From assembly GCA_002839435.1 (NCBI GenBank), contig PGYA01000007.1:14756-78755 (forward strand): a stretch of DNA of 64,000 nt, read 5' to 3'. The translations under genes and the position numbers were made by a program. Positions within the stretch are counted from its first letter, which is position 1. Every line of letters begins with the position of its first letter. The notes below the pieces were generated by a model, which searched no databases, was not told the DNA's origin, and worked only from the letters and a program-made list of their open reading frames with translations. Positions 1,432-45,764 of this stretch are shown here, one piece after another. The DNA comes from Candidatus Riflebacteria bacterium HGW-Riflebacteria-2 (GTDB lineage Bacteria; Muiribacteriota; Ozemobacteria; Ozemobacterales; Ozemobacteraceae).

Positions 1432-2106
1432 TCAGTATGTCGGTGCTGAATCTGAGAACGGCGCCACATTAAGACGAAATTTATGACTCATCGGAACTTT
1501 TAAATCTCTGGCGATATAGCCATCAGGCGGAGCCAGTGTCAGTGAGATTTCCAACAACGTACCAATTGCATCAGCATTGATACCTGCTACGATTTCTTCG
1601 GCATTGTTCGCTGTTTTTATAACAGAAGAAACGATGAATTCGATTGCCACCACATCATCGAGCACCGGTGCGCGACCGCCGCCGCCGTTGATAACCAGCC
1701 TCCGATTCTGTCTGGCAATCGAATATATACTGTGTTCGCTGGTGTGATTTGAACTGGCCATATCGTAAATTGTCCTGCTCACGTTCCAGGCAAGTATGTT
1801 GCCATTTGGAGCGGAGCTCGGGTCAGGATGAATTTTGACAGGCCGGGGCGATTCTGTCAGAGTAGGATTAAGAATGTCAGTACTGAATTCCAGCCGATTG
1901 GTCGCCTCTTCAAGAGCCTTACGCGCCTGGGCCCAGAAAATATCGGACTGTGCCGCACGCTCCTGCTTCCAGGCGGTAATTCTAAATGAGTCGCTGCTGC
2001 GACTGTACAAATACATTACCGCCATAATAAAAACAGAAAATACCATTATCGAAACGACAATTTCGATAATGGTAAAAGCTTTTTTATTCTGCAATCTTAA
2101 TCTCAA
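1432..2106 (-). CDS. pseudopilin / type IV pilin-like protein (prepilin N-terminal cleavage/methylation motif)
   Basis: N-terminus KKAFTIIEIVVSIMVFSVFIMAV matches the G/A-F-T-[LI]-I-E prepilin consensus with Glu at +5 followed by a hydrophobic helix. Confidence 0.6.
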   Translation of the reverse strand: MRLRLQNKKAFTIIEIVVSIMVFSVFIMAVMYLYSRSSDSFRITAWKQERAAQSDIFWAQARKALEEATNRLEFSTDILNPTLTESPRPVKIHPDPSSAPNGNILAWNVSRTIYDMASSNHTSEHSIYSIARQNRRLVINGGGGRAPVLDDVVAIEFIVSSVIKTANNAEEIVAGINADAIGTLLEISLTLAPPDGYIARDLKVPMSHKFRLNVAPFSDSAPTY

Positions 2107-2635
2107 CCAGTTCCTCCAGCGTTTTGCGGGTACCGTTAAAACTACCCCAAACCCTGACTCTCAGATAATCCTGCGTATAAAGACCGGACAAATTATGTGA
2201 AACCAGGTCGAACTCATCGACGCCAAAATCAAATGTACCGACGAGAGCAGCATCGCCAGCACCAGCAGAGCCTGTCTCAAGAAACTGCTTGATTTTTGCA
2301 GCCGGTGTATCAGCATTTGCCGTCTGCAGATCATGCAACCACATCATTCTGGTCATATTGAACTCGGCTGGGTCGGCGCCATTTTTAACATCAAGTGAAA
2401 GCTGATGTATCCGGTAGTATTCAGAAGGCAGAACGCGGTATTTATAAATCGCCAGCTGTATTCCCGACCTTGCCGCCATCAGAGCACGCGTCTGTTCATA
2501 CTGCTTGCCGAAAGTACCACGCTGCTGTCTGGTATTCATCAGCAGAATGCCAATCAGGGCGAGTATGGCAGTGCAAAATACCAATACCACAGCGATAGCT
2601 ACACCGCGTTTTGTACTATACAATTTTACCATCAT
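2084..2635 (-). CDS. minor pilin-like protein (GspK/PilX-like N-terminal anchor, no Glu5)
   Basis: N-terminus RGVAIAVVLVFCTAILALIGILL is a single N-terminal TM anchor of the PilX/GspK type. The ORF overlaps the flanking pseudopilin genes, so it sits in an operon. Confidence 0.45.
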   Translation of the reverse strand: MMVKLYSTKRGVAIAVVLVFCTAILALIGILLMNTRQQRGTFGKQYEQTRALMAARSGIQLAIYKYRVLPSEYYRIHQLSLDVKNGADPAEFNMTRMMWLHDLQTANADTPAAKIKQFLETGSAGAGDAALVGTFDFGVDEFDLVSHNLSGLYTQDYLRVRVWGSFNGTRKTLEELVEIKIAE

Positions 2636-3231
2636 CTGCTCATATCTGCGCGAAATGTTTCGAGATCAACCGCCTCGCGCTGACCATAATCAACCCGGAC
2701 CTTTACACAAACCAGGTCGTCGAAGCAGGAATAAGTCGCCACCGGTGCTGGAGGCGCCGGTGGAACCGGTGGAGGGCCGGGAGGAGCCTCGAAGTCTCTG
2801 AAACCAAAAACAAGAGCATCATTGTGCGGCGTTTCTATGTTCTGAGCTCGAAAAACCGTATTCACCCAGACACTTACCGAATAAGAAGCCCGGCCAATTG
2901 CTACCGCAGTCGAGCTTGCCGTCATGCCCGAGAATTCGAGAGAACCCTTGAACTCGCCCGATGGCGTCTGTATATTGAGAGGAATTGTGTCCAGCGAGCC
3001 TTCCAGCAGTTTGTTGTAGTTAACCGTCAACAAAACGTTGATAACAGCCTCACCAAGCTTTAGTGCCGTTTCCTGTTCTATCTGACGGGTGGCGGTGCCG
3101 TATGAAGTCGAAAAAGCGCCGATGGCAGGCAATATTGCAAGAGCCATAATTACAAGTGCGACAAGTATTTCGACCAGCGAAACCCCGCAGCGGGTACTTA
3201 AGGCTGTTCCGTGTCTACCTGTTCTTTTCAT
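2632..3231 (-). CDS. pseudopilin (prepilin N-terminal motif) with Pro-rich segment
   Basis: N-terminus GVSLVEILVALVIMALAILP matches the prepilin motif. There is a PPGPPPVPPAPPAP stretch near the C-terminus. Confidence 0.6.
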   Translation of the reverse strand: MKRTGRHGTALSTRCGVSLVEILVALVIMALAILPAIGAFSTSYGTATRQIEQETALKLGEAVINVLLTVNYNKLLEGSLDTIPLNIQTPSGEFKGSLEFSGMTASSTAVAIGRASYSVSVWVNTVFRAQNIETPHNDALVFGFRDFEAPPGPPPVPPAPPAPVATYSCFDDLVCVKVRVDYGQREAVDLETFRADMSR

Positions 3232-5656
3232 GCTTACGATCGATTACTCTGATGTTCGGGTTCTCATTGGTAACCCTCAGATACAGTCTCATGCTGCGTT
3301 CAAGACCGGCGTAATCAGTTGCCCTGACGTCAATGAACGGAAATCGTTGATTGATAAGCTCACCTTCCTCTGCACCGATAACATCAGGCGGGGTGGGTTC
3401 ACGGAAAACGACGCGAAGCTTGCCGTTAACACTTTCCTGCGTATCGATCGGTACCCGGTAACTGGCGCGTGGATGCTGGTTCGGCACTTCCACCATTATC
3501 TCACCATTATTGATACCGGTAGGAATGGAAACGATATTGTCGAGTTTCGCGCCGGCGCTGTCAATAGTTGCCCACTTGATGTTGTCATCGGTCCAGACAT
3601 CGATCAGATACTCAACGTCTTCCTGTATCATCGCTTTATTTCCAGGCAGTTCCAGCAGCGCAACTACCCTGCGCCCATAACTGTTGCGTTTACCAAAGGT
3701 TTCAATATCAAAATCCTGAGTTGCATCAGCTTGACGCATGTCAGACTGATCGTAAGACTCGAGTCTGAAATGCTTACGTATAAATTCGGGATCCGGGCTT
3801 GTTTTGAAGCGATTCAGCAAAATGCTTCGCTCCGTCGCATGCATTACATCACTATAAAAAATATCAACAATTCGAAAGTACAGGTCCTGACTGCCGTCCT
3901 CGACTCTGCTGCTCAAAAAGGGTATCGAGGTCGTCGGACCAAGAAAATCAACGTAATCAGCAACGTTCATATCGGCCGGTGCCGCTGATGACTTGTATTT
4001 TGTCGAATGAACTATAGTGAAATCGGGATCACCCTGTGGAATGACCGGCGGGAAGAAAATACGGCTGCCATCCTTGACCGATTCAAGCCTGATAACGATA
4101 TTTGGCAGATCGTTGTCGCGGATATTGACATAACCCTGGCCGCGGCGAAAATCAGAATTCAACTTGGCTTCCAGATCGCCCAGATAAACGTCATCAAAGG
4201 CTTCGACCGGGCGAAAATCAACCTGTATCGGCCAACCACGCGCAGCAAGAGGGTGCGTCAGCAGATTAGTATCTATAAGTTCGCCAGCAAAATTAACGTT
4301 AACGCTGCCAACAACCGTTGGTCCGAGACCGTAACAATTGACGGGATCATCATCATAAATCTTTGGATCCCCCGGATTCAAGTTACCGGACTCATCCCAG
4401 GCGTAAACCGTATAACGCATGGCACCATGGCATGAATTAGGCATGATGATATGATCAGTTTCGGCGCCAGACTGGATCACGCTGGGCTTTTCCATGACCC
4501 ATCTCTCTTCGTCTGCCCAGGTGATGGCCGGAGCTGCATCAATCTTGCCAAGCAACAGTGCTGTTCCGATTTTTCCGCCGGAATTGTCTTTGATTCTCAA
4601 GCCTTCAACCCGATACCAGTCACCGCTCGTGGCCGGTCTATTGATGCCAAGTTCAGGGAACTCTCCATCTATGCATCCTTCAATCATCGGTGGAGTTCGA
4701 TCTTTGAAGGTCATTATGAATTCTATTCCACTCTGATTTTCTACTATGGCAGAACCATCTTTTGTGTGCTCACCAATAATTGAAGCCAGATTCTTATAAA
4801 TATTGGGTTCGGTTACGTTGTGCTGGTCTCCCGAAGGTGAAGGATCTGACGGATCGGAAGGGTCGGAAGGGTCTGACGGATCGGAAGGGTCAGAAGGATC
4901 TGGCGGATCGGAAGGATCAGAAGGGTCTGGCGGATCGGAAGGGTCGGAAGGATCAGGCGGATCAGAAGGATCGGAAGGATCAGACGGATCGGAAGGATCG
5001 GAAGGATCAGACGGATCGGAAGGATCGGAAGGATCGGAAGGATCGGAAGGATCTGAAGGCGTCGCTCTGACGCAGGGAGGATATTCACAGAAAGCTCTGT
5101 ATTCCTGGCATGAAATGGCATTGGGCTCGGCCGTAAAAGGTTCAATGTATTTGTAATCTGTGCCCAGACACATAAAATATCTGCGCCGATGCGGATTTTC
5201 TGTATTCTCATAATCTCTAAAACGGAGACCGGCCAGAGGACGAAGTTTTTGCGGACGCCAGAACTCCTCACCGGTATCTTCATCGCGCTGCATGTAGCCA
5301 GAGTCGAGATAAAAATTCAGCAACAGGAAATCAGCAAAATTGATCCGAGCTGTAGAAAAAATCAGACCACCATTGCTGTTGAGCAGACTAAAAAAATCGT
5401 CGGCAGTTCTCTTTCTGGCAAAACCACCAAAGGTACTGCTGATATAGCCCTGATTGACAACCGAATCTTCGCTCGCAACCGTCATCTTGATGCCGGTTAT
5501 CCGGTCAACATCTTCATAGGTATCGACAGGGTTACCAAAGTCACTCTCAATCTGTACCGACTGAAGTATCGACATGGTATAGGCATCCTGAGCCATAACT
5601 CTGCCAGTTATCAGCGTTACGAACAAGAACAGACAAACACAAAACAGTCTTTTCAT
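3215..5656 (-). CDS. large secreted protein (813 aa) with a ~35x Pro-Ser-Asp tandem-repeat linker; possible pilus-associated adhesin
   Basis: Signal peptide MKRLFCVCLFLFVTLITGRVMA. Long (PSD)n low-complexity segment. The start overlaps the stop of the downstream pseudopilin gene, so it is in the same operon. Confidence 0.6.
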   Translation of the reverse strand: MKRLFCVCLFLFVTLITGRVMAQDAYTMSILQSVQIESDFGNPVDTYEDVDRITGIKMTVASEDSVVNQGYISSTFGGFARKRTADDFFSLLNSNGGLIFSTARINFADFLLLNFYLDSGYMQRDEDTGEEFWRPQKLRPLAGLRFRDYENTENPHRRRYFMCLGTDYKYIEPFTAEPNAISCQEYRAFCEYPPCVRATPSDPSDPSDPSDPSDPSDPSDPSDPSDPSDPSDPPDPSDPSDPPDPSDPSDPPDPSDPSDPSDPSDPSDPSDPSPSGDQHNVTEPNIYKNLASIIGEHTKDGSAIVENQSGIEFIMTFKDRTPPMIEGCIDGEFPELGINRPATSGDWYRVEGLRIKDNSGGKIGTALLLGKIDAAPAITWADEERWVMEKPSVIQSGAETDHIIMPNSCHGAMRYTVYAWDESGNLNPGDPKIYDDDPVNCYGLGPTVVGSVNVNFAGELIDTNLLTHPLAARGWPIQVDFRPVEAFDDVYLGDLEAKLNSDFRRGQGYVNIRDNDLPNIVIRLESVKDGSRIFFPPVIPQGDPDFTIVHSTKYKSSAAPADMNVADYVDFLGPTTSIPFLSSRVEDGSQDLYFRIVDIFYSDVMHATERSILLNRFKTSPDPEFIRKHFRLESYDQSDMRQADATQDFDIETFGKRNSYGRRVVALLELPGNKAMIQEDVEYLIDVWTDDNIKWATIDSAGAKLDNIVSIPTGINNGEIMVEVPNQHPRASYRVPIDTQESVNGKLRVVFREPTPPDVIGAEEGELINQRFPFIDVRATDYAGLERSMRLYLRVTNENPNIRVIDRKHEKNR
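4838..5057. repeat. imperfect 9-bp tandem repeat (GGATCGGAA-like units) encoding the (PSD)n linker
   Basis: Direct reading of the sequence shows about 25 tandem 9-mers with point variants (G/A/C at wobble positions). Confidence 0.8.
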
Positions 5657-7152
5657 GCTCCACTCCCTGTCTGGTCATCAATTATGGCATAAGCCATGCC
5701 TTCAAAAGTTTCATTGTCTTTCACTTTACTATAACTCATAATAAGGTCGCGCTCAATACGTTTGACAAATTTCGGGTGCCAGCCAGTAATTTGCGTCGCC
5801 AGACCGCTCAAAACCGCCTCTTCAAAGTCACTTTCATAAGCAGCATATTTGAGCTGCTTACGGGCAAGAGCGACAAAGTAATATGCACGTGAACGTAGAG
5901 AACCACTCTCGAGGCTATAGGTGAGAAAACGCTGAGCGCCCTCGATCTGACCGACTTTAAACAGGCTTATGCCGACTAGATAATTCAACCATGGTACGTT
6001 AAGATCGCGGGCAATACTGACAAGTTCGCCGAGACAATCAACCGGAGATCTAAAAAAAATCACCGGCAGGCATTTAACAAAGGTCCAGGCGGAACCCAGC
6101 GAAAAACGCATCAGCAGATCTTCGCCAGCTTTCCAGGAATAGTAGACAGCCAGCGGAATGAGTGCAATAAAGAAAAGCAGAAGAAGATACGAAGCCATGA
6201 AAGCCATAAAATGGCACTCAAAGCGGAAGCCCAGTGTCTGATAAGTCTTACCGGACTTTTCATTGCGACTGAAACCCAGTGCCATAAGATAGTCTTTCTG
6301 GCCGTAATAACATTCTGAAAACAACGGAAAAAGAGTATCATCATCAGGATTGAGATGATGATATTTCCAGAAATCAACCAGAGCATCATCGTAATCTTTC
6401 AGTTTGAGATGAGCCTTACCACGTAAAAGCAGGTATTCGATACGATCAGGTGAATCGGCGATCAAAACCGTCAATGCGTTGATCGTTTCAAGCATGCGGC
6501 CTTCCAGAAATGCGGTCTCAGCTTTTTCGACAAAGGTCTCGATCTGGTTGATGTGATCGATTCTGGCCTTCAACGCAAGCGCCGGCTTGTAGTCAGGTTC
6601 GCGCTTGAGTATTACATCAAGCATTTCCATGGATCTGACACGGTCGCCCTGCGCAAAAAAACCTTGCGCCCGGTTCATGTAGGAGATCGTCGAATAACTA
6701 TCGAGATCATGCGCTCGACCACTTGAAACATCGACCTGGATTCCCTGTGATTGGTATTCTTCTATTTTTCGGTATATCACGGTTACCCGCTGCATATTTT
6801 CAAGAGCAAACTGGTTTTCTGGCGATAAAGCCAGCATTTCCTGCAGCAGCTTTTCGGCGTCGGGAACATTTTTTGCCGACAGATAAAACTCGATCTGCTG
6901 CTGAAGTTTATCTATTTTTTCATCCAGCGCCCTCTTGAGCTTGTCAGAGAATTCCTTTACTTTTTCGTCATTCGCATCGATTTTTTCGGCACGCTGTAAA
7001 AAATTGCGGGCCTGGACAAGATTACCGTTGTCAAAGGAAACTTCGGCACGGCGGAGATACTCGCGCGCCTGCCCGCTGTACGCCAAAATCGGGGTTGGCA
7101 CCCCAACCATAAGCAATACAAGTATGCATACTATTAAGTAAACTTTTGTCAT
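5653..7152 (-). CDS. TPR-repeat protein with N-terminal signal/anchor and an internal TM segment
   Basis: Signal-like N-terminus. Several TPR-like helical repeats (e.g. ALGFSRNEKSGKTYQTLGF... AKARIDHINQIETFVEKAETAFLEGR). Internal hydrophobic stretch MAFMASYLLLLFFIALIPLAVYY. Confidence 0.55.
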   Translation of the reverse strand: MTKVYLIVCILVLLMVGVPTPILAYSGQAREYLRRAEVSFDNGNLVQARNFLQRAEKIDANDEKVKEFSDKLKRALDEKIDKLQQQIEFYLSAKNVPDAEKLLQEMLALSPENQFALENMQRVTVIYRKIEEYQSQGIQVDVSSGRAHDLDSYSTISYMNRAQGFFAQGDRVRSMEMLDVILKREPDYKPALALKARIDHINQIETFVEKAETAFLEGRMLETINALTVLIADSPDRIEYLLLRGKAHLKLKDYDDALVDFWKYHHLNPDDDTLFPLFSECYYGQKDYLMALGFSRNEKSGKTYQTLGFRFECHFMAFMASYLLLLFFIALIPLAVYYSWKAGEDLLMRFSLGSAWTFVKCLPVIFFRSPVDCLGELVSIARDLNVPWLNYLVGISLFKVGQIEGAQRFLTYSLESGSLRSRAYYFVALARKQLKYAAYESDFEEAVLSGLATQITGWHPKFVKRIERDLIMSYSKVKDNETFEGMAYAIIDDQTGSGA

Positions 7153-7270
7153 TTCCCGCTATTCTAACAGTATACGGCCGGAACCGTACCCTGCTGTCAA
7201 TTCCTGTTACAGAGATAACGTTGAAATCAAGTCGAAAGTTTCATAAGACTTTACAATTATTCGGCAGCTT

Positions 7271-7299
7271 TTGACAATTTTGGCAGCAACTGATAAGAT
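7271..7299 (+). promoter_or_regulatory. sigma70-like promoter upstream of fba (TTGACA-17 bp-TAAGAT)
   Basis: TTGACA at 7271-7276, a 17-nt spacer, then TAAGAT at 7294-7299. The RBS CAGGAGG sits 13 nt before ATG 7359. Confidence 0.45.
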
Positions 7300-7307
7300 G
7301 CGACTGA

Positions 7308-8300
<993 letters not shown>

Positions 8301-8343
8301 TTCATTGCAACCAGACAAAACACAGTGACATAATCGTATGACC

Positions 8344-8371
8344 GTAGGGGTTCAGCCTGCTGAACCCCTAC
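8344..8371 (+). terminator. intrinsic terminator-like hairpin after fba
   Basis: Perfect 12-bp stem GTAGGGGTTCAG/CTGAACCCCTAC with a 4-nt loop, followed by ATTCATTTTGAC. It lies 43 nt after the fba stop codon. Confidence 0.5.
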
Positions 8372-8415
8372 ATTCATTTTGACACCGGGTTGAATTGCGT
8401 CTAGAATATGTATCT

Positions 8416-8922
8416 ATGAATAACCTGAAAACAATATTCTGCCTGTTAACGATCTTTTGTATGGTGCTGATTTTGGCCGGCTGCGGCGGTGGTGGCGGGG
8501 GCAGCAGTGATTACACGCTGTCACCCGAAGAGCTTGAGGTAGCCACAGCAGTCGAAGCATTTGCTGCTGCCGTTAAGACCGAGAACCTTGCTTCTGCCAT
8601 GTCTTACGTTTTTTCTAACCTCAAGTATTTCAATTCGATCAAGCCAGCCGATCACACAGAGTTTCAGAAACGCCTTGAAAATTTGTTCGAAAAAGCCACG
8701 GTTGTAGACTTTACTATTACCAATATCGGCGTCAACATGGGTGGAGAGGATTTTGCTTCGATTATCGGCCAGCTGACACTCGTTTACAGCGTCGATGGAT
8801 CAGTTGCCACACTTAGCGAAAGCATTGACATCAGTTTGGAAAGAGATAGCGGGAAATGGGGCTTTACGCAGATATCCGGCCGCAATGAACTCATGATCAC
8901 CGCTTTTCCACCGGCATTGTAA
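8416..8922 (+). CDS. lipoprotein of unknown function
   Basis: Signal peptide with lipobox LILAGC, then a Gly-rich linker GGGGGGSS. Confidence 0.5.
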   Translation: MNNLKTIFCLLTIFCMVLILAGCGGGGGGSSDYTLSPEELEVATAVEAFAAAVKTENLASAMSYVFSNLKYFNSIKPADHTEFQKRLENLFEKATVVDFTITNIGVNMGGEDFASIIGQLTLVYSVDGSVATLSESIDISLERDSGKWGFTQISGRNELMITAFPPAL

Positions 8923-8949
8923 CAAAATTAACGGGAGGAGCCTGCTCTG

Positions 8950-10368
8950 ATGACCTGCACAGTAGTGCCCGTCGAATCGAAGGATCTGCTGCGACTTGAT
9001 TTTTCGCTGACTCCAGCAGCCTGGAGTGAAGTTGCCGGCGACAATGTTTCGATAATGGCGATCGAGAACGGTCTGGCGATCTTTTCGTTTGCGACCGGAG
9101 CAATGCTTGACAGTGCACCTGCTGATTCCCGCCTGCTGGCAAAATTGCCGACAGCAACTGCTGTTGCGCTGAATCGGCACACCCAGGGAACCGCAGCAGA
9201 AGAAAACCTGCTGTTCAAGTTCGAGCGTTTCGACCTGACCGGGCAATTTGCCGCAGGAATCAGTTTGCAGGCGACCGGCGACACAGCCGGCGCGATAACC
9301 GCATACCAGAAGGTAATAGAGGCTGATGCCGGCGTTGGCAGAGTTTATAATCTGCTTGGTCTGTGTCAGCGCCTGAAAAACGAGACTGCCGCCGCTGAAG
9401 CTTCTTACTACAAGGCACTCGAAGTTTTTGCCGATGCTCCTGATGCCTGGTGCAACCTTGGCATTCTCTACCAGAAAACAGGCCACGACATGAGAGCCCA
9501 GGAGTTTTTCAGCAAAGCACTCAAACGTGATGAGTTTTATTTCAACGCTCTGCTACGACGGGCGGCCTGGTTTCTTGAAACCGGCCAGGTCGCAAATTCT
9601 GAGTTTACCACGCTGAACCTCAGGCTGCTCATGCACTACAGCGAACTGGCAACGGTGCAGCGGCATCTCATCAGCAGTGCCGAGCGTCTCGACATGTCTA
9701 TCGAAGATTACTGCGAACAGCTGCACAGTGACCATGGTATTCTCGCCAACAGCAAAATTCAGCAGTATTTCAGACAAATAGAAGCGTTTATCAACAATGG
9801 CGCCTTTGCTCAGGCAACTGGTTATATACAGATGCTGAGCGGCCTTATTCGACAAATGCATGGTGAACAGCAGATAACCGGGTGGCTGCAACCCAGACTC
9901 AAAAAGATCGGCAGACGGTTTCCGACCGAATCTTCTTATGAATTCGTAAAAGCAGTCAGACAGTTGTCAACACCAGATAACCAGCCGCAGGCATCAGATA
10001 AACCTGAACGCAAACCCTTGACCGGCCCGGAGTTCTTTTCGATGGTACTGCTCGAAATAATGCGTGATGGGCAGATAGAGCCGGCCGAGCAGGAATTGAT
10101 AAAGAAGCTGAAGGCAGCGCTCAATGTTCCTGACGAAATGTTCATGAAAATGTTCAACAACGTCAGGCGTCAGCTTGCCGGCGTAGAACTTTCCGGCGGG
10201 TTACGTGAACGTTTCAGTCATCAGCGCCTGTTCAAAAACCTTTGTCAGGCAGCTTTTCGTGATGGCGTTATCGAAGAATCCGAAAAAAAGATTCTGGGTT
10301 TTGCCTGCCGGGCATTTGGTATATCATCAGAAGAGTTCAAACGAATAATATCCGAGGTTGTCAGATGA
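8950..10368 (+). CDS. TPR-repeat protein with C-terminal TerB-like tandem motifs
   Basis: TPR-like repeats (AITAYQKVIEADAGVGRVYNLLGLCQ... AWCNLGILYQKTGHDMRAQEFFSKALKRD). The C-terminus carries two DG[QV]IE...E..L motifs (DGQIEPAEQELIKKLKAALNVPDEMF and DGVIEESEKKILGFACRAFGISSEEFKRI) typical of the TerB fold. Confidence 0.55.
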   Translation: MTCTVVPVESKDLLRLDFSLTPAAWSEVAGDNVSIMAIENGLAIFSFATGAMLDSAPADSRLLAKLPTATAVALNRHTQGTAAEENLLFKFERFDLTGQFAAGISLQATGDTAGAITAYQKVIEADAGVGRVYNLLGLCQRLKNETAAAEASYYKALEVFADAPDAWCNLGILYQKTGHDMRAQEFFSKALKRDEFYFNALLRRAAWFLETGQVANSEFTTLNLRLLMHYSELATVQRHLISSAERLDMSIEDYCEQLHSDHGILANSKIQQYFRQIEAFINNGAFAQATGYIQMLSGLIRQMHGEQQITGWLQPRLKKIGRRFPTESSYEFVKAVRQLSTPDNQPQASDKPERKPLTGPEFFSMVLLEIMRDGQIEPAEQELIKKLKAALNVPDEMFMKMFNNVRRQLAGVELSGGLRERFSHQRLFKNLCQAAFRDGVIEESEKKILGFACRAFGISSEEFKRIISEVVR

Positions 10369-10946
10369 ACACGGACAATGACCAGCTGGAATCAGAATTC
10401 TCACCACTCGCGATCATCGCCCAGATAAAGACCTACCTGGATGCCGCCGAAATCAGATATCACGACATCGCCGATGATGCGATCGAGCTTTACATGCAGG
10501 GCCACAACCTGACGATGCACGTGGTCGTCTATGTACACAACAATCATCTCATTCTGCGCATACCCGGCTTCATCAGGAACATTGAAATGTACCGATCAGA
10601 CATCATGCAGTTTCTGATGCAGGTAATGAATGATATTCTCGATATCAGGTTCGAAATCGGCAAAGACGGCAAAAGCCTCTCAGCCTGCTGCCAACACATT
10701 CTCGAAGACACCATGATCACCCGACGTCAGTTTGACCTTGCTTTCATGGTGCTGATTCACATTGTTGACGATACTTACCCGCACCTGATGAAACTGATTT
10801 ACCAGTCCGATAGCGCCAATAGTCCAGAAATAGCTGGCGATTTTGCGGAAGCACCAGAGCAAAACAGCCTTGAAGAGGAAGAAAGCGAAGAAACTGAAGA
10901 CTTTGCACCAATCGAAGACAGCGAGCAAACCCGCAAGATTAACTGA
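10365..10946 (+). CDS. YbjN-like (T3SS-chaperone-like) small acidic protein
   Basis: About 190 aa with an acidic C-terminal tail. The pattern of alternating beta/alpha segments resembles the YbjN family. The start overlaps the upstream stop (ATGA), so it is probably translationally coupled. The family assignment is tentative. Confidence 0.4.
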   Translation: MNTDNDQLESEFSPLAIIAQIKTYLDAAEIRYHDIADDAIELYMQGHNLTMHVVVYVHNNHLILRIPGFIRNIEMYRSDIMQFLMQVMNDILDIRFEIGKDGKSLSACCQHILEDTMITRRQFDLAFMVLIHIVDDTYPHLMKLIYQSDSANSPEIAGDFAEAPEQNSLEEEESEETEDFAPIEDSEQTRKIN

Positions 10947-10968
10947 GAAAGAAAAAGGAGCTGCAACA

Positions 10969-12081
10969 ATGACGGCACGCCATATCAGGTCGACAAAACA
11001 CCTTGTCACAATCATGTTTCTCCTCTGCAGCTGTTTTGTGCAGGCGGCCACATTGCAGGTTCCCGAATGGTTCAGCCTCACTGCCCGGCTGGAGCGTGCG
11101 CCGGAACTCAACCAGAGCATTGAACTGCAGGCCGAACTGCAGTCTGTTATAGGCACTCTGAATGATGTTCAGATAAGGCTCATTCTGCCAGAAAGCTGGC
11201 AGGCAGAACCGGAATCAGCCAGAATAAGCGTAATAGAAGCTGGCAGTCGGCACAAGGCCGTTTTCAAGGTAACCCCGGGCAGCTATCTGTCGCAGGGTTC
11301 GATTGTTGTCGAAGCTGCTTTTGTGGTTCCCAAAAGCGAACTGATCGCCCATTTTAACCGCGAAATACCTGAAGATGCCGGCGAACTGAGCGAAACCGTG
11401 CGCCGCTGGCCTGATACTACAAAGCGTTACGTCGACATATCATTCGCCCTGACACCCGAAGAAACATTCTACCCGCTGGCTGATGATATGTGGCTCAGTT
11501 ACGACGATAGAATAATCGTGCATGATGGCTTCCGTGGGCCATCTTATTACGAAGACCCCTTGATCAGCGCTCACCAGGCACAAACTGATGTCGAAATGTT
11601 CGGAAAACTTGAAGAATACATCAAGTCTGACCCCAACCTGCTCGAAACAATGCAGAAATCAGGCATAGACGTCAAGCGCAAGCGCTATGACAAACTAAAT
11701 GGCCTATATGTTCTGGCGGTCAAGGCTTATCAGGATAACAGCCTCGATATGGCAGGCAATTTTATCGAGCAGTTTGAGTCTGCCATAAAATCTGAACCGG
11801 CGACGGCATACGAAAACCTGAGAATTGCCGCCGGTAACATCAGGGGCCTTGTATTCTGGGGCAAAGGGCAGCGCCGGCTGGCCGAAGAAGCATTTAAGAA
11901 AACCTTTTACAGCAATCGCAAGCACCCACTGCAACGCTACATACTGCGCAACATCGGTCTGCTCATGCTGGCCGGCAAAGACGCCGCAACCGCCGGCGAA
12001 ATGTTAAGACTGGCACGTGGCTTCAAAAAAGGCTACACATTACTCGACAAGGAAAGCGAGCTGCTTGGCAAGAACAGATAA
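10969..12081 (+). CDS. secreted protein of unknown function
   Basis: RBS AAAGGAG 8 nt upstream of ATG 10969. Signal peptide MTARHIRSTKHLVTIMFLLCSCFVQAATLQ. Confidence 0.5.
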   Translation: MTARHIRSTKHLVTIMFLLCSCFVQAATLQVPEWFSLTARLERAPELNQSIELQAELQSVIGTLNDVQIRLILPESWQAEPESARISVIEAGSRHKAVFKVTPGSYLSQGSIVVEAAFVVPKSELIAHFNREIPEDAGELSETVRRWPDTTKRYVDISFALTPEETFYPLADDMWLSYDDRIIVHDGFRGPSYYEDPLISAHQAQTDVEMFGKLEEYIKSDPNLLETMQKSGIDVKRKRYDKLNGLYVLAVKAYQDNSLDMAGNFIEQFESAIKSEPATAYENLRIAAGNIRGLVFWGKGQRRLAEEAFKKTFYSNRKHPLQRYILRNIGLLMLAGKDAATAGEMLRLARGFKKGYTLLDKESELLGKNR

Positions 12082-14538
12082 ATGGACGCAGTAAATGAAC
12101 TGTTCAACGACCTGAAATCTCCTGATCCGGCGATCAGGTTTTCGGTTCTTTCGCGAATCGAAGACATGGCCTGGTCAGATGAGCATAAAGAGGCTTTTCG
12201 CAAGATTTTTGCCGGCGAAAAAGACCCTGGCATTCGTTTTCACATGCAGAAAGTTCTCGCCAGGCTCGATAGCGGCGACAAAAACCGCGGCAGCCTTGAG
12301 GCCATTGAAGAACAGCTGCAAAACCCGTTGCGTGACGAAATAAACCTGGCCCTGATGCTGGAATCGGTCAAGCGCAACGAAGCCGCCGCTGTGGCCGAAA
12401 GCCTGCGCCGTGCCGAATGGCCAAAATTCTCGCAGCAGCTGCTGCCCTCGGTGTTAAAGTTTCTCAAAAAATACGGGGCGGCAGAAGATACGCCGGCCAT
12501 CGAAAAACTGTGCCGTCACCATGATCCCCGCGTTCTCAGCGCTGCCATCGAAGCTCTTGAAAAGCACAACCCCGAGCGCCTCAAAGCCCTGATAGTTCCG
12601 CTGCTGATCAACAGCAATTTCGGTATCAGATCGCGGGCCGTGCGCCTGCTACATCGCTGGGACCCATCAGAAGCATTGCGTCACTTTGAGTCGATGCTGT
12701 TTTCGAATCTCGAAACAGAGAAACATGCGGCGCTTTATCAGGCGTTCTTTTTTCCTTTCAAACAGATAGAGACTCTCATGTTGCGCTATATAAGTGTCGA
12801 GAGCGAGCCTGAGATGATCAAAAAGGCCGGACTGATATTTATGACCAACCCGGAACGCCACATTCCGGCCCGGCTGCTCGAGGTTCGTCAGGCCTGCACA
12901 GGTATCAAGCAAAGACTGGTCGATGTGATACTCAAAGGCGTTCTGCAGTCACTCTTTCAGGCCAGAATAGTAAATGCCGCACCAGAACAGATGCTGCAGG
13001 TGCTCGAAACACATTTCAAGGAAAAGCGCATCAGGCTTTTCATAGATCACCATGGCAACGCGCTGAAGTCGCCAGAAGCAGCTGTGCGTCTGCAATCAGC
13101 CCTCAAGCTGAGCGAAATCGCAAGACGCGGTGCTGAAGAAGCCAGACAGGTGGTCGAAGCATACCTGCCGCACGAACGCGACCTTAACAATGTCAGAAAA
13201 GTCAGATATTTTCTTGAGACCGGTCAGCTTGAAATTCAAAAAACCGCTGAAACTGAGCCTCCAAAGCAGCCGTCACCGCCAAAGCCTGTGCCAACCGGAG
13301 CATCAGCCAAGCCCGCGGCTGAAAACAAAATTTCGCCGGACTCCGGGGCAGCCGTCGTCAAAACCGAAAAACCAGCCAGTAAGACTGTCGAGAAGCGGCT
13401 CTTACAGGAATATACCGCAAGAGAACGGCAAAACTTCATTTCTGCGATTTCTGCTGAAAACTACGAGCAGTACATGGCTATTATCAGACCATTTTTCCGG
13501 GAAATGGACGTAAATGAGCAGATAGCGGTGATCAAACGCATCGAAAGATTTGGCGGCCAGTCGGATTCAGAGCTTCTCATCGGCTGTCTTCATAGCGACG
13601 ATGAAAACATTCTTGAGTCAACCATTGAAGCTCTCAGCGTCATCAACCCGGAAGCGCTGCACCCCTATCTGCCACAGCTTATCAAGCATCGCTACGACGA
13701 AGTAAAGCTGGCGGCCATAAAGGTTTTTTCGCTGTTTGACAAAAAACAGGCCATCTCTCTCGTCGAAAACATGTTGCTGTCTATCAAGCCGGCACAGCGC
13801 CAGACTGCCTTATTCTGCCTCGGCAGTTTCGACTATCACTCGGTCAGCCAGATTCTTATCAATGCCTTCAAAAGTGAGAATGACAGCGAAAATCTGAAGC
13901 AGATAAGCTCCATTCTGCGCTCAAATGCCGACGAAGACACTTTTTTCCGACTGTATGTAGACTACCAGGCCTGCAAATCTTCAAAAAGGGACGAATATGA
14001 GAAACTGTGCCGGGAACTCGCCGCCACAATCGTCGAAGCTGAGCCAGGCCGACCGATAGAGGCACTTTTCTCTGCCGGCGAAGAGATGGTAGCCGAAGAA
14101 GAGCGCAAGAAAACTGAACGCGCCGCCTATAAACTCGAAAAAATTCAGAAAATACGCGAAAACGTCGACAAAACAGTGGTCATTGATGCTTCGCTGGCCA
14201 GATTTACGGTTATCTCTTATGGCGTTGGCGCAGTATTGACCGCGCTTATCTGGTTTCTCTTTCTGGCGCCACCACCACCGCTGCCGCCTGATGCTTCGCC
14301 CAGGGCAACAACTGCCCGCAAAGTTATGGAGACAATTACCATAAAAGGACGAGTTGTTATTTCAGATAAAGCTCAACGCATTGTCGCAATAGAAACTGAA
14401 CCGGGCAGATTATACAAAATGCAGCTGCCCGAAAACTTCGGCAGGATGCCTGAGCCCGGTTCCAATTTTCAGGCTCAGATCAGAGCTGAAAAAGACAGCA
14501 GCGGCGAAATAGCGGCCGAATTTCTGACCGCCTTCTGA
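12082..14538 (+). CDS. HEAT/PBS-lyase-like repeat protein with a C-terminal TM helix and a small extracytoplasmic domain
   Basis: Repeated DPxxR/IRxxA HEAT-like units (DPAIRFSVLSRI, DPGIRFHMQKVL, DPRVLSAAIEALEKH, DENILESTIEALSVI). TM segment FTVISYGVGAVLTALIWFLFLA is followed by PPPPLPP and a ~100-aa tail. Confidence 0.55.
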   Translation: MDAVNELFNDLKSPDPAIRFSVLSRIEDMAWSDEHKEAFRKIFAGEKDPGIRFHMQKVLARLDSGDKNRGSLEAIEEQLQNPLRDEINLALMLESVKRNEAAAVAESLRRAEWPKFSQQLLPSVLKFLKKYGAAEDTPAIEKLCRHHDPRVLSAAIEALEKHNPERLKALIVPLLINSNFGIRSRAVRLLHRWDPSEALRHFESMLFSNLETEKHAALYQAFFFPFKQIETLMLRYISVESEPEMIKKAGLIFMTNPERHIPARLLEVRQACTGIKQRLVDVILKGVLQSLFQARIVNAAPEQMLQVLETHFKEKRIRLFIDHHGNALKSPEAAVRLQSALKLSEIARRGAEEARQVVEAYLPHERDLNNVRKVRYFLETGQLEIQKTAETEPPKQPSPPKPVPTGASAKPAAENKISPDSGAAVVKTEKPASKTVEKRLLQEYTARERQNFISAISAENYEQYMAIIRPFFREMDVNEQIAVIKRIERFGGQSDSELLIGCLHSDDENILESTIEALSVINPEALHPYLPQLIKHRYDEVKLAAIKVFSLFDKKQAISLVENMLLSIKPAQRQTALFCLGSFDYHSVSQILINAFKSENDSENLKQISSILRSNADEDTFFRLYVDYQACKSSKRDEYEKLCRELAATIVEAEPGRPIEALFSAGEEMVAEEERKKTERAAYKLEKIQKIRENVDKTVVIDASLARFTVISYGVGAVLTALIWFLFLAPPPPLPPDASPRATTARKVMETITIKGRVVISDKAQRIVAIETEPGRLYKMQLPENFGRMPEPGSNFQAQIRAEKDSSGEIAAEFLTAF

Positions 14539-14594
14539 TTTGTCGCCAGCCCTTTTGCATTGACTTGCCGGCAAAAAGGCTATATATTTTTTCC

Positions 14595-14945
14595 ATGAGT
14601 AACTTTACCGTCAAAACAGAAAATAACAGCGACATTTTTATCGTGCGCTCGAGCGGTTACCTCGACGAAAGCGGCGGTGCTGCAGTCTTTGAGGCAGTAC
14701 AGAACACCCTGCCGGATGACTGTCACAAGGTCATTCTCAATCTTAAAGACTCACCGGTCATCAACTCACAGGGAATCGCCCAGCTCATCGAGCTCAGCGA
14801 AATAATCGTCGATGACAAGGGCGGGGAACTGGCTTTTGTCGGCCTCAGCGACCTGACTTATGGCGTATTTAAGATGGTAGGCCTGCTGCAGATGGGAAAC
14901 CCCTTTGAAAGCGAATCTGAAGCAATAGAAGCGATGCGCCAGTAA
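14595..14945 (+). CDS. STAS-domain anti-sigma-factor antagonist (SpoIIAA-like)
   Basis: About 115 aa. Contains the STAS pattern VILNLKDSPVINSQGIAQLIEL...ELAFVGLSDLTYGVFKMVGL. Confidence 0.65.
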   Translation: MSNFTVKTENNSDIFIVRSSGYLDESGGAAVFEAVQNTLPDDCHKVILNLKDSPVINSQGIAQLIELSEIIVDDKGGELAFVGLSDLTYGVFKMVGLLQMGNPFESESEAIEAMRQ

Positions 14946-15015
14946 AGGTAGACGAAAAGCTGTAAATCAGATATATTTAAGGTAAGGTACACAAAAAGAC
15001 AAGGAGGTCTTAACT

Positions 15016-15801
15016 GTGGTTATCAAGGCAACAAATTCCAACAGGCTGCACAGCAGCCTTATAAAAAGTGAAGAGGCCAGAAGCAAAACCCTCGACCGAC
15101 TGGCAACAGGCAAAAAAATAAACAGTGCCAGCGACGACCCGGCCGGTTTATCAATGGTGATGAGCCTCGAATCGCAGACACGAGGTCTGCTGATGGGCAT
15201 TAACAACCGCCAGGACGAAATTTCCCTGCTGCAGACTGCCGAAGGGGCTTTGAGCTCGACCGGCGACATGCTGCAACGGATGAATGAACTGGCAGTTCAG
15301 GCTGCCAACGGCACATTGACCAGCGAAGACCGCAGCAATATTCAGCTCGAAATAGATCAGCTGGCACAACAGGTCGATCAGACTGCCAGCAACACCGTTT
15401 ACAATGATAAAAAGCTGCTTGACGGCAGTTTCAGCATTGAACTGCAGGGCGGTGAAACCATGTCGCTGCCGGCCGCCAGTGCCGAAGCACTCGGAGTAAA
15501 TTCGCTGAATCTGACTGCCAATGCCGAACAGGCAATTGGCCAGGTCAGTCAGGCCATCAATAACGTTGCAACCCAACGTGGCACGATCGGTGCCACCATC
15601 AACGGCATAAGTTCTCAGATTGCCGGGCTGCAGAGTGAGCTTATCAACACAACTGCTTCACAGTCACGCATCGAAGACGCCGATATCGCGGCAGAACTGA
15701 TCAACATGAATATGCAGGCGCTACAGTCCAAAGCAGCCATACAGGCGTTCAAAATGCAGGACGAAAACCGCGCGACCGTTCTCAAACTCATCAACGGCTG
15801 A
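15016..15801 (+). CDS. fliC: flagellin (short, 261 aa)
   Basis: GTG start with RBS AAGGAGG. The N-terminal flagellin signature is RLATGKKINSASDDPAGLSM. The C-terminal signature is QSRIEDADIAAELINMNMQALQSKAAIQAFKMQ. Confidence 0.8.
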   Translation: MVIKATNSNRLHSSLIKSEEARSKTLDRLATGKKINSASDDPAGLSMVMSLESQTRGLLMGINNRQDEISLLQTAEGALSSTGDMLQRMNELAVQAANGTLTSEDRSNIQLEIDQLAQQVDQTASNTVYNDKKLLDGSFSIELQGGETMSLPAASAEALGVNSLNLTANAEQAIGQVSQAINNVATQRGTIGATINGISSQIAGLQSELINTTASQSRIEDADIAAELINMNMQALQSKAAIQAFKMQDENRATVLKLING

Positions 15802-16382: not shown

Positions 16383-18494
16383 ATGCACTCAATGCTGTCT
16401 CGATCATCAAATTTAATAAAACGTAATGGCTTTGCCATAATGTTTGCCGTCGTCATCGGCACTGTCATGCTTATTCTGGCAGTGTCACTTTACACATTCG
16501 TCGGGCACCAGCACACTGGAATTCAAAGCATAGTCAACGGCGAAATCGCGCATTTTCTTGCTGAAGCAGGCATCAACAGCAGCATAGGCTCAGTACGTGA
16601 GGCCGTCGCCAAAGTTATGTCCGGCACTTCGGGCAACCAGCAGCTCAACGAAATACTGCTAAAACCCGGTGATCTCGATGATGTCTGTATCAATGACATG
16701 CTCGATGCCAACTGGAACCGCGACCTCGAAGAGTTTGCGCGCGAAATGGACAAAGATGCCTCGATCAAAGTCGAAGTCTGGCTGAGAGATTTCAGCAACT
16801 GCGAAACCGCGCCTGGCAGCTGGGCCGACCCGGTTGCCAAAGACGGTCATCTGGTAATTGAATCGACAGGCACCTTCAAGGGCAGCAGCCGGGTAATTCT
16901 GGTCAAGCGCAGAGTAAGAGTGGGAAATACCGTTCCCGCCTGGCTGAGCAAGTTCAGCCTGTTCGTCAACGATGCCGCCCGCGCCGGCGAAGGCGGCTTC
17001 AACCTTATCCGTAACGACTACCGCGGTATGATAACCGACGGCCCTAAGGCGCTGATTGTCTACAACCACGCCACCCCTGACGCGCCCTTCGAGGCCGGCA
17101 ACATGAGCGATATTCTGCGCGAAGAAGGCGATAAAGACATCTGGCAACGCCGCGGCTGGCTCTGGATGGGAGGCCGGCGCAGCCGGCTGAATCTCTGTTC
17201 CGGCGCCGGCGATCTCGGCGAAATATTCCATTTTTACGATGTCAGCAACCCGAATATCTTTTCGCCGGTCAAGTTCTCGACACCGGCAGAAGCTCTTCCC
17301 GAAGCTTTTTCTACGTCGCTGATGATTCCGTGGGACAAAAGCGACACCTCAGTCCGCCAGGTCAGTTACAGATTCGGGCACAGTTTCGTGCTCGATGGCT
17401 TTCACGACCGCAGCAACCGCAAAGAAAGCGACGCGATGTACGAAGGCAACATCCTTTCAACTGGTGAAAAAAACTCCTATTCATCTAAATCATCGATTCT
17501 GCACCTGTTCGGTGATGCGCGCAAGGGTTACCAGTCGCGCACCCGCGTGTTTGGCAACGTTCACATCGCTTTCCCGCGCTATGCCAGCCTTGAAGTAAAA
17601 GCTGACGAACCCGACGTCGAGGCACTCTTTACCGCGGTCAACCCGCCGCCGCTTTATCTGCTGCCTTCGGTTTCAGAGAGCGCCTGGCACAATTCGATCA
17701 TGATTCAAGACATCATGGGCCGCAAGTTTGGCGGGCCGTTACTGCAATCAGGCATGCTCTGCCGCAGTTACGCTGACTACGCGCAACTGATGAGCCGAAT
17801 CAGCGAACTGCCTTATGCTGAATCCTACAACAGCATGCAGGACGTCTACAGTAATAAGGCCGGCCGGGTGTTTCCATCAGATGCCAGCATTCTTGCCATG
17901 GACAACGGCCTCAACCTCGAAATTTCGCGCGACAGTCACGTTTTTTTCAAGGGCCGACCGACAGCACAGGGACTGCTTCAGGTTATAGACAACCGCACAC
18001 AAATCGAAGTCGATTCGATAAACGATTTCTGGAAACGTTTTCTCAATGAGCGCGATGAGCTTGAGCTCAATGCCATAGTCAGTATAAAGAATCCGCGTCA
18101 GCTCGACATGCAGATTCCAGCCGCCGGCAAACCACAACCGATGACAGTAAAAGGCGGCGGAATGATCATACTCCGGCAGGGCAACCTGGTATTGCGCGGC
18201 ATCAGCTGTGCATCACCCGACGAGGCACTGACCGTCGTTCTCGCCGGTAACGGTTCGGTAAGCTTTTCTTCGACGCAGCCCAATCATGTAAACATTGTTG
18301 CGCCCAACGCCGAGCTGGGTTATGGTTCTAAATTCGACATGTATGGCTCCATGTGCGTCGGCTCTATCTACGCCGACCATCGTTTTCAGGGCGGCACCCT
18401 GCGCTTTCGCCCCGGCCAGGATCCTGCCACTTCCGGTTACAACCGATATTACAAGGTATTTATCGATCCCAAGGATTCATTCTGGAATGAATAA
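16383..18494 (+). CDS. large (703 aa) PilX/GspK-like minor pilin / putative pilus-tip protein
   Basis: N-terminal anchor KRNGFAIMFAVVIGTVMLILAVSLYTF is PilX_N-like with no Glu5. It is followed by a large globular region and lies directly upstream of two canonical pseudopilin genes. Confidence 0.5.
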   Translation: MHSMLSRSSNLIKRNGFAIMFAVVIGTVMLILAVSLYTFVGHQHTGIQSIVNGEIAHFLAEAGINSSIGSVREAVAKVMSGTSGNQQLNEILLKPGDLDDVCINDMLDANWNRDLEEFAREMDKDASIKVEVWLRDFSNCETAPGSWADPVAKDGHLVIESTGTFKGSSRVILVKRRVRVGNTVPAWLSKFSLFVNDAARAGEGGFNLIRNDYRGMITDGPKALIVYNHATPDAPFEAGNMSDILREEGDKDIWQRRGWLWMGGRRSRLNLCSGAGDLGEIFHFYDVSNPNIFSPVKFSTPAEALPEAFSTSLMIPWDKSDTSVRQVSYRFGHSFVLDGFHDRSNRKESDAMYEGNILSTGEKNSYSSKSSILHLFGDARKGYQSRTRVFGNVHIAFPRYASLEVKADEPDVEALFTAVNPPPLYLLPSVSESAWHNSIMIQDIMGRKFGGPLLQSGMLCRSYADYAQLMSRISELPYAESYNSMQDVYSNKAGRVFPSDASILAMDNGLNLEISRDSHVFFKGRPTAQGLLQVIDNRTQIEVDSINDFWKRFLNERDELELNAIVSIKNPRQLDMQIPAAGKPQPMTVKGGGMIILRQGNLVLRGISCASPDEALTVVLAGNGSVSFSSTQPNHVNIVAPNAELGYGSKFDMYGSMCVGSIYADHRFQGGTLRFRPGQDPATSGYNRYYKVFIDPKDSFWNE

Positions 18495-18930
18495 GACACA
18501 GCGTAGCGGCTTATCAATGATTGAAATCGTCTTTTCGATCGGCATACTTGCCCTGATCATGCTGCCTGTGTTCATGACGTTTTCGAGTGGCAACCGCAAT
18601 ATACAGCTGACAGACTCAGAATTCAGGGCACACACAGCCGCGATCGAGCTGATGGAACAGATTGTTTCGCTGCCGTTCGGCCAGATAAAAAGCGGTGAAT
18701 ATGACAGTGACACGATTATCGACGGCGGGCAGTTTGCCGACGGCCCGGTTTTGTTCAAGCTTTCGCCAGTCGAAGATCTCAGGCACACATTGAAAATTGA
18801 GGATATCAAACGTGACGGCAAAACTCTGTTCAAGAAAGTCACGGTAACGATAAAGTTTGCCGCGGCGCCTGGTTCAGACCGTATCCGCGAATTTTTCATG
18901 AAAACGCTGGTGGCCAATGAAAACCTGTAA
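18487..18930 (+). CDS. pseudopilin (prepilin N-terminal motif)
   Basis: Start MNKTQRSGLSMIEIVFSIGILALIML contains the G-LSMIE motif with Glu5. ATG 18487 overlaps the stop of the upstream gene. Confidence 0.6.
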   Translation: MNKTQRSGLSMIEIVFSIGILALIMLPVFMTFSSGNRNIQLTDSEFRAHTAAIELMEQIVSLPFGQIKSGEYDSDTIIDGGQFADGPVLFKLSPVEDLRHTLKIEDIKRDGKTLFKKVTVTIKFAAAPGSDRIREFFMKTLVANENL

Positions 18931-19498: not shown

Positions 19499-19577
19499 CC
19501 TCTGTCACTTTTTTGCAACAAATAGAAGGAAAATTTCGTATAATTATACAGGCGAATGTACAGGGGGAGGTATTTAT

Positions 19578-20789: not shown

Positions 20790-20806
20790 GCTGAAAGGAT
20801 CAAGCA

Positions 20807-45711: not shown

Positions 45712-45764
45712 TTCAGGAGAAGAGGCTCACGCGGAGGCGCAGAAAGGTTATTATGACTGAAAAC

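Follow-up and report, generated by a model that had tools for sequence, protein, structure and literature searches.

A six-gene cassette of minor pilins, a large secreted protein and an adenylate cyclase in Riflebacteria: a possible tip module of type IV filaments

Here we describe a cassette of six genes at the left end of a 64,000-nucleotide (64-kb) stretch of DNA from Candidatus Riflebacteria bacterium HGW-Riflebacteria-2, a member of the uncultured phylum Riflebacteria; this whole stretch is called the window below, and coordinates are positions in it. On the minus strand the cassette encodes a membrane protein with tetratricopeptide repeats (TPR), a large secreted protein of 813 amino acids (aa), three pilin-like proteins, here named pilins A, B and C, and a membrane-bound adenylate cyclase with a GAF domain. 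We consider it an even bet that this block is one of several interchangeable minor-pilin priming or tip modules for a type IV filament machine that is encoded elsewhere; the single steps of its working we infer.

Minor-pilin and tip modules determine what a type IV filament binds and when it is built, and how pili communicate with cyclic AMP (cAMP) is being actively studied in Pseudomonas and cyanobacteria. Should the parts of the cassette cooperate, they would form a compact, genetically defined pilus-to-cAMP unit and a second, independent solution to the role that PilY1 plays in type IVa pili. Prepilin-type proteins, class III cyclases, TPR proteins and the logic of combining minor pilins with a large tip protein are of known kinds. 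New are the orphan protein of immunoglobulin (Ig)/HYR type in the slot of PilY1, the TPR protein heading the operon and the cyclase as an integral, phylum-wide member. A literature search on Riflebacteria pili, on pseudopilins together with a GAF cyclase and on the Verru_Chthon cassette discussed below found no paper describing this arrangement, nor any description of Riflebacteria pili.

Gene order, conservation and neighbourhood of the cassette

The first gene codes for the TPR membrane protein (499 aa; 7152..5653) and is followed by those for the large protein with a Sec-type signal (813 aa; 5656..3215), pilin A (199 aa; 3231..2632), pilin B (183 aa; 2635..2084) and pilin C (224 aa, with a TTG start; 2106..1432), all of them open reading frames (ORFs) on the minus strand. 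The cyclase gene starts with the ATG at 1428 and runs to position 1, where the end of the window cuts it after the first 476 of 557 codons. Since the first 8 kb of the window are identical to the 225.6-kb JGI contig L030 (L-numbers denote related loci or contigs), this contig was used for the sequence to the left of the window. Pilin B is 100% identical to a protein recorded for HGW-Riflebacteria-2. From the TPR gene to the cyclase gene, the junctions measure −4, −17, −4, −23 and +3 nt. A first-pass annotation of this DNA had proposed a minus-strand operon of overlapping or abutting genes in just this order at 1432-7152. Order and packing were borne out by the ORFs and their junctions, and the range given does hold the first five genes; the cyclase gene lies outside it. 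The six genes are presumably co-transcribed, and the tight packing together with the start contexts is a first argument for a common module.

As the junctions range only from −23 to +3 nt, the 206 bp that separate the cassette from a divergently transcribed class II aldolase gene (7153..7358 in the ORF map) are the sole non-coding space able to hold a cassette promoter. They contain a weak sigma-70-like match on the minus strand (7277..7248, 9 of 12 positions). A sigma-54 promoter, an idea taken from PilR-like activators encoded downstream of the cassette in many loci, was looked for and rejected: none is present in the 206-bp region, and genome-wide matches stay at chance level. Terminator-like sites are not enriched (13 versus 9.0±3.3 expected), and the promoter-like hexamers and terminator-like hairpins within the six-gene block are consensus noise. 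The strongest internal hairpin (2074..2041, minus strand) combines a perfect inverted repeat of 15 bp with a T-rich tail. It lies within the first 20 codons of the pilin C gene, and weaker versions of it occur in orthologs. A role as an attenuator inside the block, in front of the pilin C and cyclase genes, was rejected, because no covariation was found and the pairing in 21 orthologs (70.5%) equals that in shuffled sequences (69.5±1.0). The hairpin thus follows from the conserved TIIEI...SIMV peptide and the codons that encode it.

Related loci were collected by means of the large protein and by a scan of a genome collection with a pilin B profile (20 species-level genomes), and all of them were annotated with hidden Markov models made from the cassette proteins. 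Every locus of sufficient length (about 25 Riflebacteria loci) shows one arrangement on a single strand: TPR protein, large protein, pilin A, pilin B, pilin C, cyclase. An ortholog of the TPR protein is the first gene of the cassette in every locus. The loci are labelled as Riflebacteria, save for several from an 'uncultured bacterium' and two others (Erysipelotrichia and Methylomirabilis), and these last two contigs are probably mis-binned. In a divergent clade (WILK20-1 contigs L027, L031 and L032; about 40% identity in pilin B) only the genes for the TPR protein, the large protein and pilins A and B are present, and pilin C and the cyclase are missing from this site. The conserved unit is therefore a four-gene core, which mainstream Riflebacteria extend by pilin C and the cyclase, two genes that occur or are lacking jointly. 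In L032 the convergent neighbour of the four-gene cassette encodes a 642-aa protein with a GAF and an HD-type (HD_5) domain, again a case of GAF-domain signalling.

Conservation of this kind could also reflect mere synteny, the TPR and cyclase genes being only neighbours of the pilin/large-protein pair in a narrow, slowly rearranging lineage. Indeed, the divergent block from aldolase to flagellin on the other side of the promoter region is conserved beside the cassette in most loci as well, so synteny is generally high in this lineage and calls for caution with regard to the cassette. In addition, class III cyclases are abundant, with three of them in 64 kb, and the sister clade lacks a cyclase at the cassette. 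However, the overlaps of 4-23 nt and the gap of 3 nt argue for translational coupling, the TPR gene also heads the four-gene form, and the six-gene unit remains intact in L008, L009 and, most notably, L026, where other genes flank it on both sides. In L026, with a pilin B of only 35% identity, the flanks consist of heme biosynthesis and radical-SAM genes. Pilin genes, moreover, resume past the cyclase in two genomes. We therefore regard mere synteny as very improbable, and the invariant order that survives the complete change of flanks in L026 counts in favour of a tip module.

The gene after the cyclase varies between loci, while the cyclase is constantly the sixth gene of the six-gene form. 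In some loci a convergent polysaccharide deacetylase gene follows. In L006 it is a convergent secretin operon with a GspD/PilQ-type secretin (129 bits for GspD versus 115 for PilQ), which makes L006 the only one among the collected loci with a secretin near the cassette. In L030 and L002 two prepilin genes follow on the same strand, the first one starting 18 nt past the cyclase stop; in L030 they code for proteins of 139 aa (G↓FSFIE, GspI/ComGE-like) and 191 aa (G↓VTFVE). The variable downstream genes behind a cyclase that is always sixth, and the prepilin genes that resume past it, are further reasons for reading the cassette as a tip module. About 2-6 kb beyond the cyclase, genes for a HAMP histidine kinase (about 705 aa) and a sigma-54-dependent response regulator (464 aa) recur in L001, L004, L005, L007, L009 and L028, a pair reminiscent of PilS/PilR.

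The three pilins and the large secreted protein

The prediction of three pilin-like genes in the first-pass annotation stood up, as the products start with prepilin-type (pilins A and C) or prepilin-like (pilin B) N-termini (3231..1432). Pilin A carries the prepilin signal G↓VSLVE with Glu5 present (G↓V(S/T)LVE across orthologs), a proline-rich insert and a cysteine pair near its C-terminus. It scores above the cutoffs of PF07963 (N_methyl; 22.1 bits, cutoff 21.2) and TIGR02532 (19.1 bits, cutoff 16.3), and its N-terminus is GspI/PilV/ComGE-like, with weak NCBIfam matches to PilV, GspI, XpsI and ComGE. Pilin C has the prepilin signal A↓FTIIE, likewise with Glu5 (G↓FTIVE in several orthologs). 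It reaches 16.5 bits with TIGR02532 (cutoff 16.3) and falls just under the cutoff of PF07963 (20.7 bits, cutoff 21.2); its N-terminus is ComGF/GspJ-like, and the best family match is ComGF (E 1.2e-5). The signal motifs of pilins A and C are kept in the orthologs. The N-terminus of pilin B, G↓VAIAV, is class-III-like and devoid of Glu5, position +5 being Val or Ile in six aligned orthologs. Lack of this residue characterizes GspK and PilX, which occupy the extreme tip of their filaments (PMC7541494). Searches of Pfam and NCBIfam gave no match for pilin B, and its assignment as a profile-defined GspK or PilX was rejected, as neither the T2SSK profiles (PF03934/PF21687) nor PilX_N (PF14341) matched. 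The protein does show a pilin fold, with GspK and minor pilins among the fold matches. This fold and the succession of signals with, without and again with Glu5 speak for a tip module.

Profile searches of the three pilins against the PDB sequences yielded nothing beyond the N-terminal helix. Because the similarities are weak and no globular domain was matched, the trio is likened below to an I/J/K or V/W/X cap and not assigned to those families; as a working resemblance, it may be described as a GspI/PilV-like, a GspK/PilX-like and a GspJ/ComGF-like member of a priming or tip set. Compared with GspI-GspJ-GspK, pilin B lacks the large alpha-domain of GspK, the T2SSK, T2SSJ and T2SSI profiles leave the globular parts of pilins A-C unmatched, the order in the cassette is I-K-J where type II secretion systems (T2SS) have I-J-K, and no gsp core genes adjoin the cassette. 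With the ComGD-GG proteins, the matches of pilin C (best with ComGF) and pilin A (ComGE) are confined to the N-terminal helix and lie far under the family cutoffs. The Verru_Chthon cassette of Verrucomicrobia/Chthoniobacter (TIGR02596-02600) likewise combines lineage-specific prepilins with a very large protein and occurs in multiple copies per genome. Membership in it was rejected, as only TIGR02599 matched, with 19.4 bits against a cutoff of 256.5 and on the N-terminal helix of pilin C. To our knowledge, and going by the NCBIfam names, the Verru_Chthon cassette has neither a cyclase nor a TPR gene.

A repeat-bearing secreted protein of 813 aa had been predicted from the sequence and was found as such, with a Sec-type signal, no pilin N-terminus and a (PSD)n repeat. 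Automatic gene calls in L029 and L030 begin this protein at Met21 (793 aa) and thereby lose the signal peptide. The long start was kept because the orthologs conserve the signal peptide and an SD (Shine-Dalgarno)-like GGAG lies 5 nt upstream of the ATG. A look-up of the exact 813-aa sequence returned no record in the protein collection, as the gene callers start at Met21. Pfam and NCBIfam gave no matches. An AlphaFold2 (AF2) model of the single chain (mean local confidence, pLDDT, 82.5; predicted template-modelling score, pTM, 0.68) comprises an alpha/beta N-domain that is the least conserved part (residues 24-195), a disordered acidic (PSD)n linker (residues 196-280, with pLDDT <50 over 196-278), a chain of mostly beta-sandwich domains that is also seen in fold searches (residues 281-800) and an unstructured C-terminal tail that is conserved in the alignment (residues 801-813). 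In this model the N-domain appears to be novel, and the sandwiches appear Ig/HYR-like, with no propeller among them. The first sandwich opens with an HYR-like DRTPPxIxGC motif.

The linker is encoded by a tandem repeat on the minus strand (4839..5059; Tandem Repeats Finder) with an in-frame unit of 9 nt, a super-unit of 27 nt, 24.6 copies and 91% matches at period 27. Among 29 aligned family members the (PSD)n expansion is limited to the protein of the window (segment occupancy 0.20; orthologs of 710-770 aa). It is a recent microsatellite-like expansion, and its length could vary between strains without a frameshift. Close homologs numbered 28, and an exhaustive profile search of 1.84 billion representatives brought up 63 relatives, nearly all with the same full-length architecture. 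The single outlier, P0200, is a protein with 15 HYR domains, and its match is limited to a motif of 30 residues where the first sandwich begins; this sandwich is for that reason called HYR-like. HYR domains are Ig-like modules linked to adhesion. Identity across the family is lowest in the N-domain (38%), reaches 48-62% over the C-terminal domains and peaks at 69% in the final 13 residues, and several cysteines are invariant across the orthologs. In one Rifleibacteriota genome the gene is tandemly duplicated within the cassette (730 and 725 aa; L001, 10001..14434).

The suggestion that the 813-aa protein compares with the tip adhesins PilY1/PilC did not hold as homology: no profile matched, the predicted structure has no propeller and the fold searches returned only generic sandwich matches. 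With a fold unrelated to PilY1, the comparison survives only as an analogy. Of the overall interpretation given in the first-pass annotation, the anatomy is thus supported and the homology to PilY1/PilC is not. The analogy itself extends over several features. PilY1 is a docked Sec substrate with a variable head above a conserved base (PMC7541494), and the 813-aa protein resembles it in its type I signal peptide, its variable N-terminal and conserved C-terminal part and its adjacency to minor pilins. In the type IVa clusters, such as fimU-pilVWXY1E of P. aeruginosa and clusters 1-3 of Myxococcus xanthus, genes for low-abundance prepilins, one of them without Glu5, likewise stand beside that of a large Sec-exported non-pilin protein built on the same variable-to-conserved plan; there too, several sets occur per genome and the motor genes lie outside the cluster. 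Several minor-pilin/PilY1 clusters can serve one machine (PMC7541494). The differences are that the beta-propeller (and the vWA domain) of PilY1 is replaced by Ig/HYR-like sandwiches, that type IVa clusters hold four or five pilins where the riflebacterial cassette holds three and puts a TPR membrane protein first, and that sequence comparison placed none of the globular domains in the families of the type IVa clusters. ComZ of Thermus and the beta-solenoid PilX of cyanobacteria share the concept of a bulky tip protein in the place of PilY1; these are pilin fusions, whereas the 813-aa protein is a separate Sec substrate. The match with the design of PilY1, together with the presence of three pilin cassettes in the window (see below), supports a tip module.

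The 813-aa protein may serve either at the tip or as cargo. In the latter case, the three pseudopilins would be the piston tip of a short periplasmic pseudopilus of T2SS type, and the 813-aa protein would be its cargo, which passes through a secretin and is released or left on the surface. The protein does have a Sec signal and no pilin N-terminus, the secretin in L006 scores slightly higher on GspD than on PilQ, and pilin A gives weak GspI/XpsI matches in NCBIfam. Furthermore, Glu5-less subunits of GspK type are proposed to touch T2SS substrates, and PilY1 itself has been called an analogue of a T2SS substrate (PMC7541494). On the other hand, GspC, D, E, F, G, L and M genes do not accompany the cassette, and a type II secretion operon was rejected as the identity of this locus because GspD, GspE, GspF and GspG are absent from both the cassette and the 64-kb window. 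The 813-aa protein shows no enzymatic domain typical of T2SS cargo and is built of adhesin-like Ig/HYR modules instead; the conservation of its C-terminal tail and body hints at lasting docking and not at transient recognition, and the genome has several cassettes, some with giant pilin-fused proteins that need attachment to a filament. Altogether, secretion of this kind seems rather unlikely to us. For a tip module of a machine encoded elsewhere speaks that the cassette has no major pilin, that the 64-kb window has no gene for an ATPase, platform protein, prepilin peptidase or secretin, and that a secretin adjoins the cassette in L006. A GspE/PilB Walker motif was found in none of the collected Riflebacteria locus DNA.

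The TPR protein, the adenylate cyclase and the proposed working

At its N-terminus the TPR protein carries a signal or anchor (residues 6-24) without a lipobox, the signal region being free of cysteine, followed by about 290 aa of TPR repeats, a transmembrane segment (318-336) and a C-terminal domain of about 140 aa. Automatic gene calls in L029 and L030 start it at Met15 (485 aa), which truncates the signal region. Pfam matches are to TPR_14, TPR_2, TPR_19 and TPR_1; NCBIfam gave TPR matches below threshold only, among them PilW (TIGR02521) with 15 bits against a cutoff of 154. Because the signal or anchor precedes them, the repeats are probably periplasmic. A TPR pilotin of the PilF/PilW/Tgl kind (about 250 aa with a lipobox cysteine) was rejected on account of the missed TIGR02521 cutoff, the missing cysteine, the length of 499 aa and the internal transmembrane segment. 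An accessory periplasmic protein encoded inside a minor-pilin cluster has a reported counterpart in TfcP of Myxococcus (PMC8833165).

The GAF-adenylate cyclase that closes the cassette was likewise predicted correctly, with Pfam matches to GAF_2 and Guanylate_cyc (PF00211; 90 bits, E 1.9e-25) and a complete set of catalytic residues. Its full length of 557 aa was read from the identical contig L030. A Sec-type signal is followed by a conserved periplasmic peptide of about 17 aa (xVIxPSPxxW), one transmembrane segment, a highly conserved coiled coil, the GAF domain and the catalytic domain. The motifs FxDIxGFT, KFIGD and FTVMGxxVNxASR are kept in 20 of 20 orthologs, which all retain both metal-binding Asp residues, the Asn/Arg pair, the substrate Lys (in KFIGD) and a Thr at the second substrate position (in FTVMG); these residue roles we take to be those of the established class III alignment (Linder and Schultz classification). 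The Lys/Thr pair and the complete catalytic residues thus point to class IIIb and justify the label adenylate cyclase. Cyanobacterial class IIIb enzymes of the CyaB1 type share the succession of GAF and class III catalytic domain, the Lys/Thr pair and the complete metal, Asn and Arg residues; the cassette enzyme differs from them by its single GAF domain, its cleavable signal with the short conserved periplasmic peptide, its one transmembrane segment and its location in a pilin operon. In L021 the coding sequence of the cassette cyclase is broken up into two ORFs of 325 and 194 aa (11189..12833), either by a frameshift that makes it a pseudogene or by an assembly error. Elsewhere in the window, a tandem pair of overlapping minus-strand genes (53890..59722) encodes proteins of about 980 aa each with HAMP and class III cyclase domains. 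With the cassette enzyme, this makes three cyclases in 64 kb and suggests a cAMP-rich signalling repertoire.

If the cassette is a tip module, it could work as follows. The prepilin peptidase would process pilins A, B and C, which would assemble in the inner membrane into a cap resembling GspI/J/K or PilV/W/X, with the Glu5-less pilin B on top. The 813-aa protein, exported by Sec, would dock on this cap via its conserved C-terminal domains and tail and ride to the tip of the filament, where the variable N-domain on its flexible acidic linker would act as the adhesin. It would thus be a functional analogue of PilY1 and not its homologue. In the periplasm, the TPR protein could assist in assembling or holding either the large protein or the cap. 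Finally, the single-pass cyclase in the same membrane might report the state of the module, that is the pool or the engagement of pilin C or of the cap, as cAMP; alternatively, the cyclase might gate the use of the module in response to a ligand of its GAF domain. That the cyclase is gained and lost jointly with pilin C fits a reporting and a gating role alike. A link between cAMP and minor pilins or PilY1 is known from Pseudomonas (PMC4324313) and has been proposed for PilX2 of Synechocystis (bioRxiv 10.64898/2026.02.12.705559); these precedents also favour a tip module. In Pseudomonas, the cyclase acts at a distance via Pil-Chp/CyaB/Vfr, whereas the riflebacterial cassette encodes its adenylate cyclase within the cluster.

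There is also a bolder reading, which we hold to be quite unlikely: the cassette might be a self-contained, hard-wired surface sensor, in which a pilus tip complex with the orphan Ig/HYR-type adhesin signals directly to a dedicated adenylate cyclase, all within the inner membrane. Signalling would run via pilin C and/or via the periplasmic peptide of the cyclase, held by the TPR protein, so that engagement or retraction of the filament would be converted into cAMP with no chemosensory relay of Pil-Chp type. If true, this would be a new, minimal and Riflebacteria-specific route of mechanotransduction from a pilus to a second messenger.

One could also dispense with the filament altogether and regard the pilin-like, TPR and large Ig-like proteins as a static, envelope-spanning signalling device with the cyclase as its output. 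The cyclase is after all invariant in the six-gene form and shares its gains and losses with pilin C, the conserved peptide of about 17 residues ahead of its transmembrane segment could be bound by the TPR domain or a pilin, and the cassette comes without a major pilin. Nevertheless, we know of no precedent for such a device, the four-gene core exists without a cyclase, and class III signals with Glu5 next to a Glu5-less partner are a hallmark of filament assembly (PMC7541494). A static sensor appears decidedly improbable in the light of these points.

Further pilin cassettes and neighbouring genes

Two more pilin cassettes lie in the window, both on the plus strand. The second one (16383..22162) begins with a 703-aa protein whose N-terminus is pilin-like and lacks Glu5 (G↓FAIMF) and which has no match in Pfam or NCBIfam. 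Two pilins follow, the first about 140 aa long (G↓LSMIE, site at 18508) and the second 193 aa (A↓FTLVE). It ends with two paralogous Sec-signal proteins of 403 and 451 aa, the first of which has a (TS)n repeat and a HEMTH (HExxH-like) motif and may be a metalloprotease cargo. In the third cassette (39805..47688) a giant protein of 1968 aa comes first; its N-terminus is of prepilin type (G↓FTLAE) and its C-terminal part carries Kelch repeats (Pfam E 3.7e-21), a combination that amounts to a pilin-fused propeller protein. Pilin-like genes for products of 204 aa (G↓YTLME, GspH/ComGD-like), 170 aa (G↓FSLAE) and 221 aa (Glu5-less) follow. To the left of the window, the stretch 12900..18626 of L030 comprises the two prepilin genes past the cyclase and a convergent fourth cassette. 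The latter encodes a pilin of 132 aa, a pilin-like protein of 734 aa that lacks Glu5 and a secreted protein of 197 aa; L002 shares this layout of post-cyclase prepilin genes and convergent cassette. At least three cassettes in the window and at least one just outside it point to a large repertoire of interchangeable filament tips that has so far not been described.

The divergent block next to the six-gene cassette (7359..15801, plus strand) codes for the class II aldolase, a 175-aa secreted protein, a TPR/TerB protein, a YbjN-like protein, a 412-aa protein, an 818-aa HEAT-repeat protein with a C-terminal transmembrane segment, a STAS protein and flagellin. Straight after the third pilin cassette, a cluster of mobile or defence type (47952..49754) contains a Uma2-family endonuclease (Pfam E 4.6e-33) and, as judged by eye, a nucleotidyltransferase/HEPN-like pair and a PemK/MazF-like toxin.

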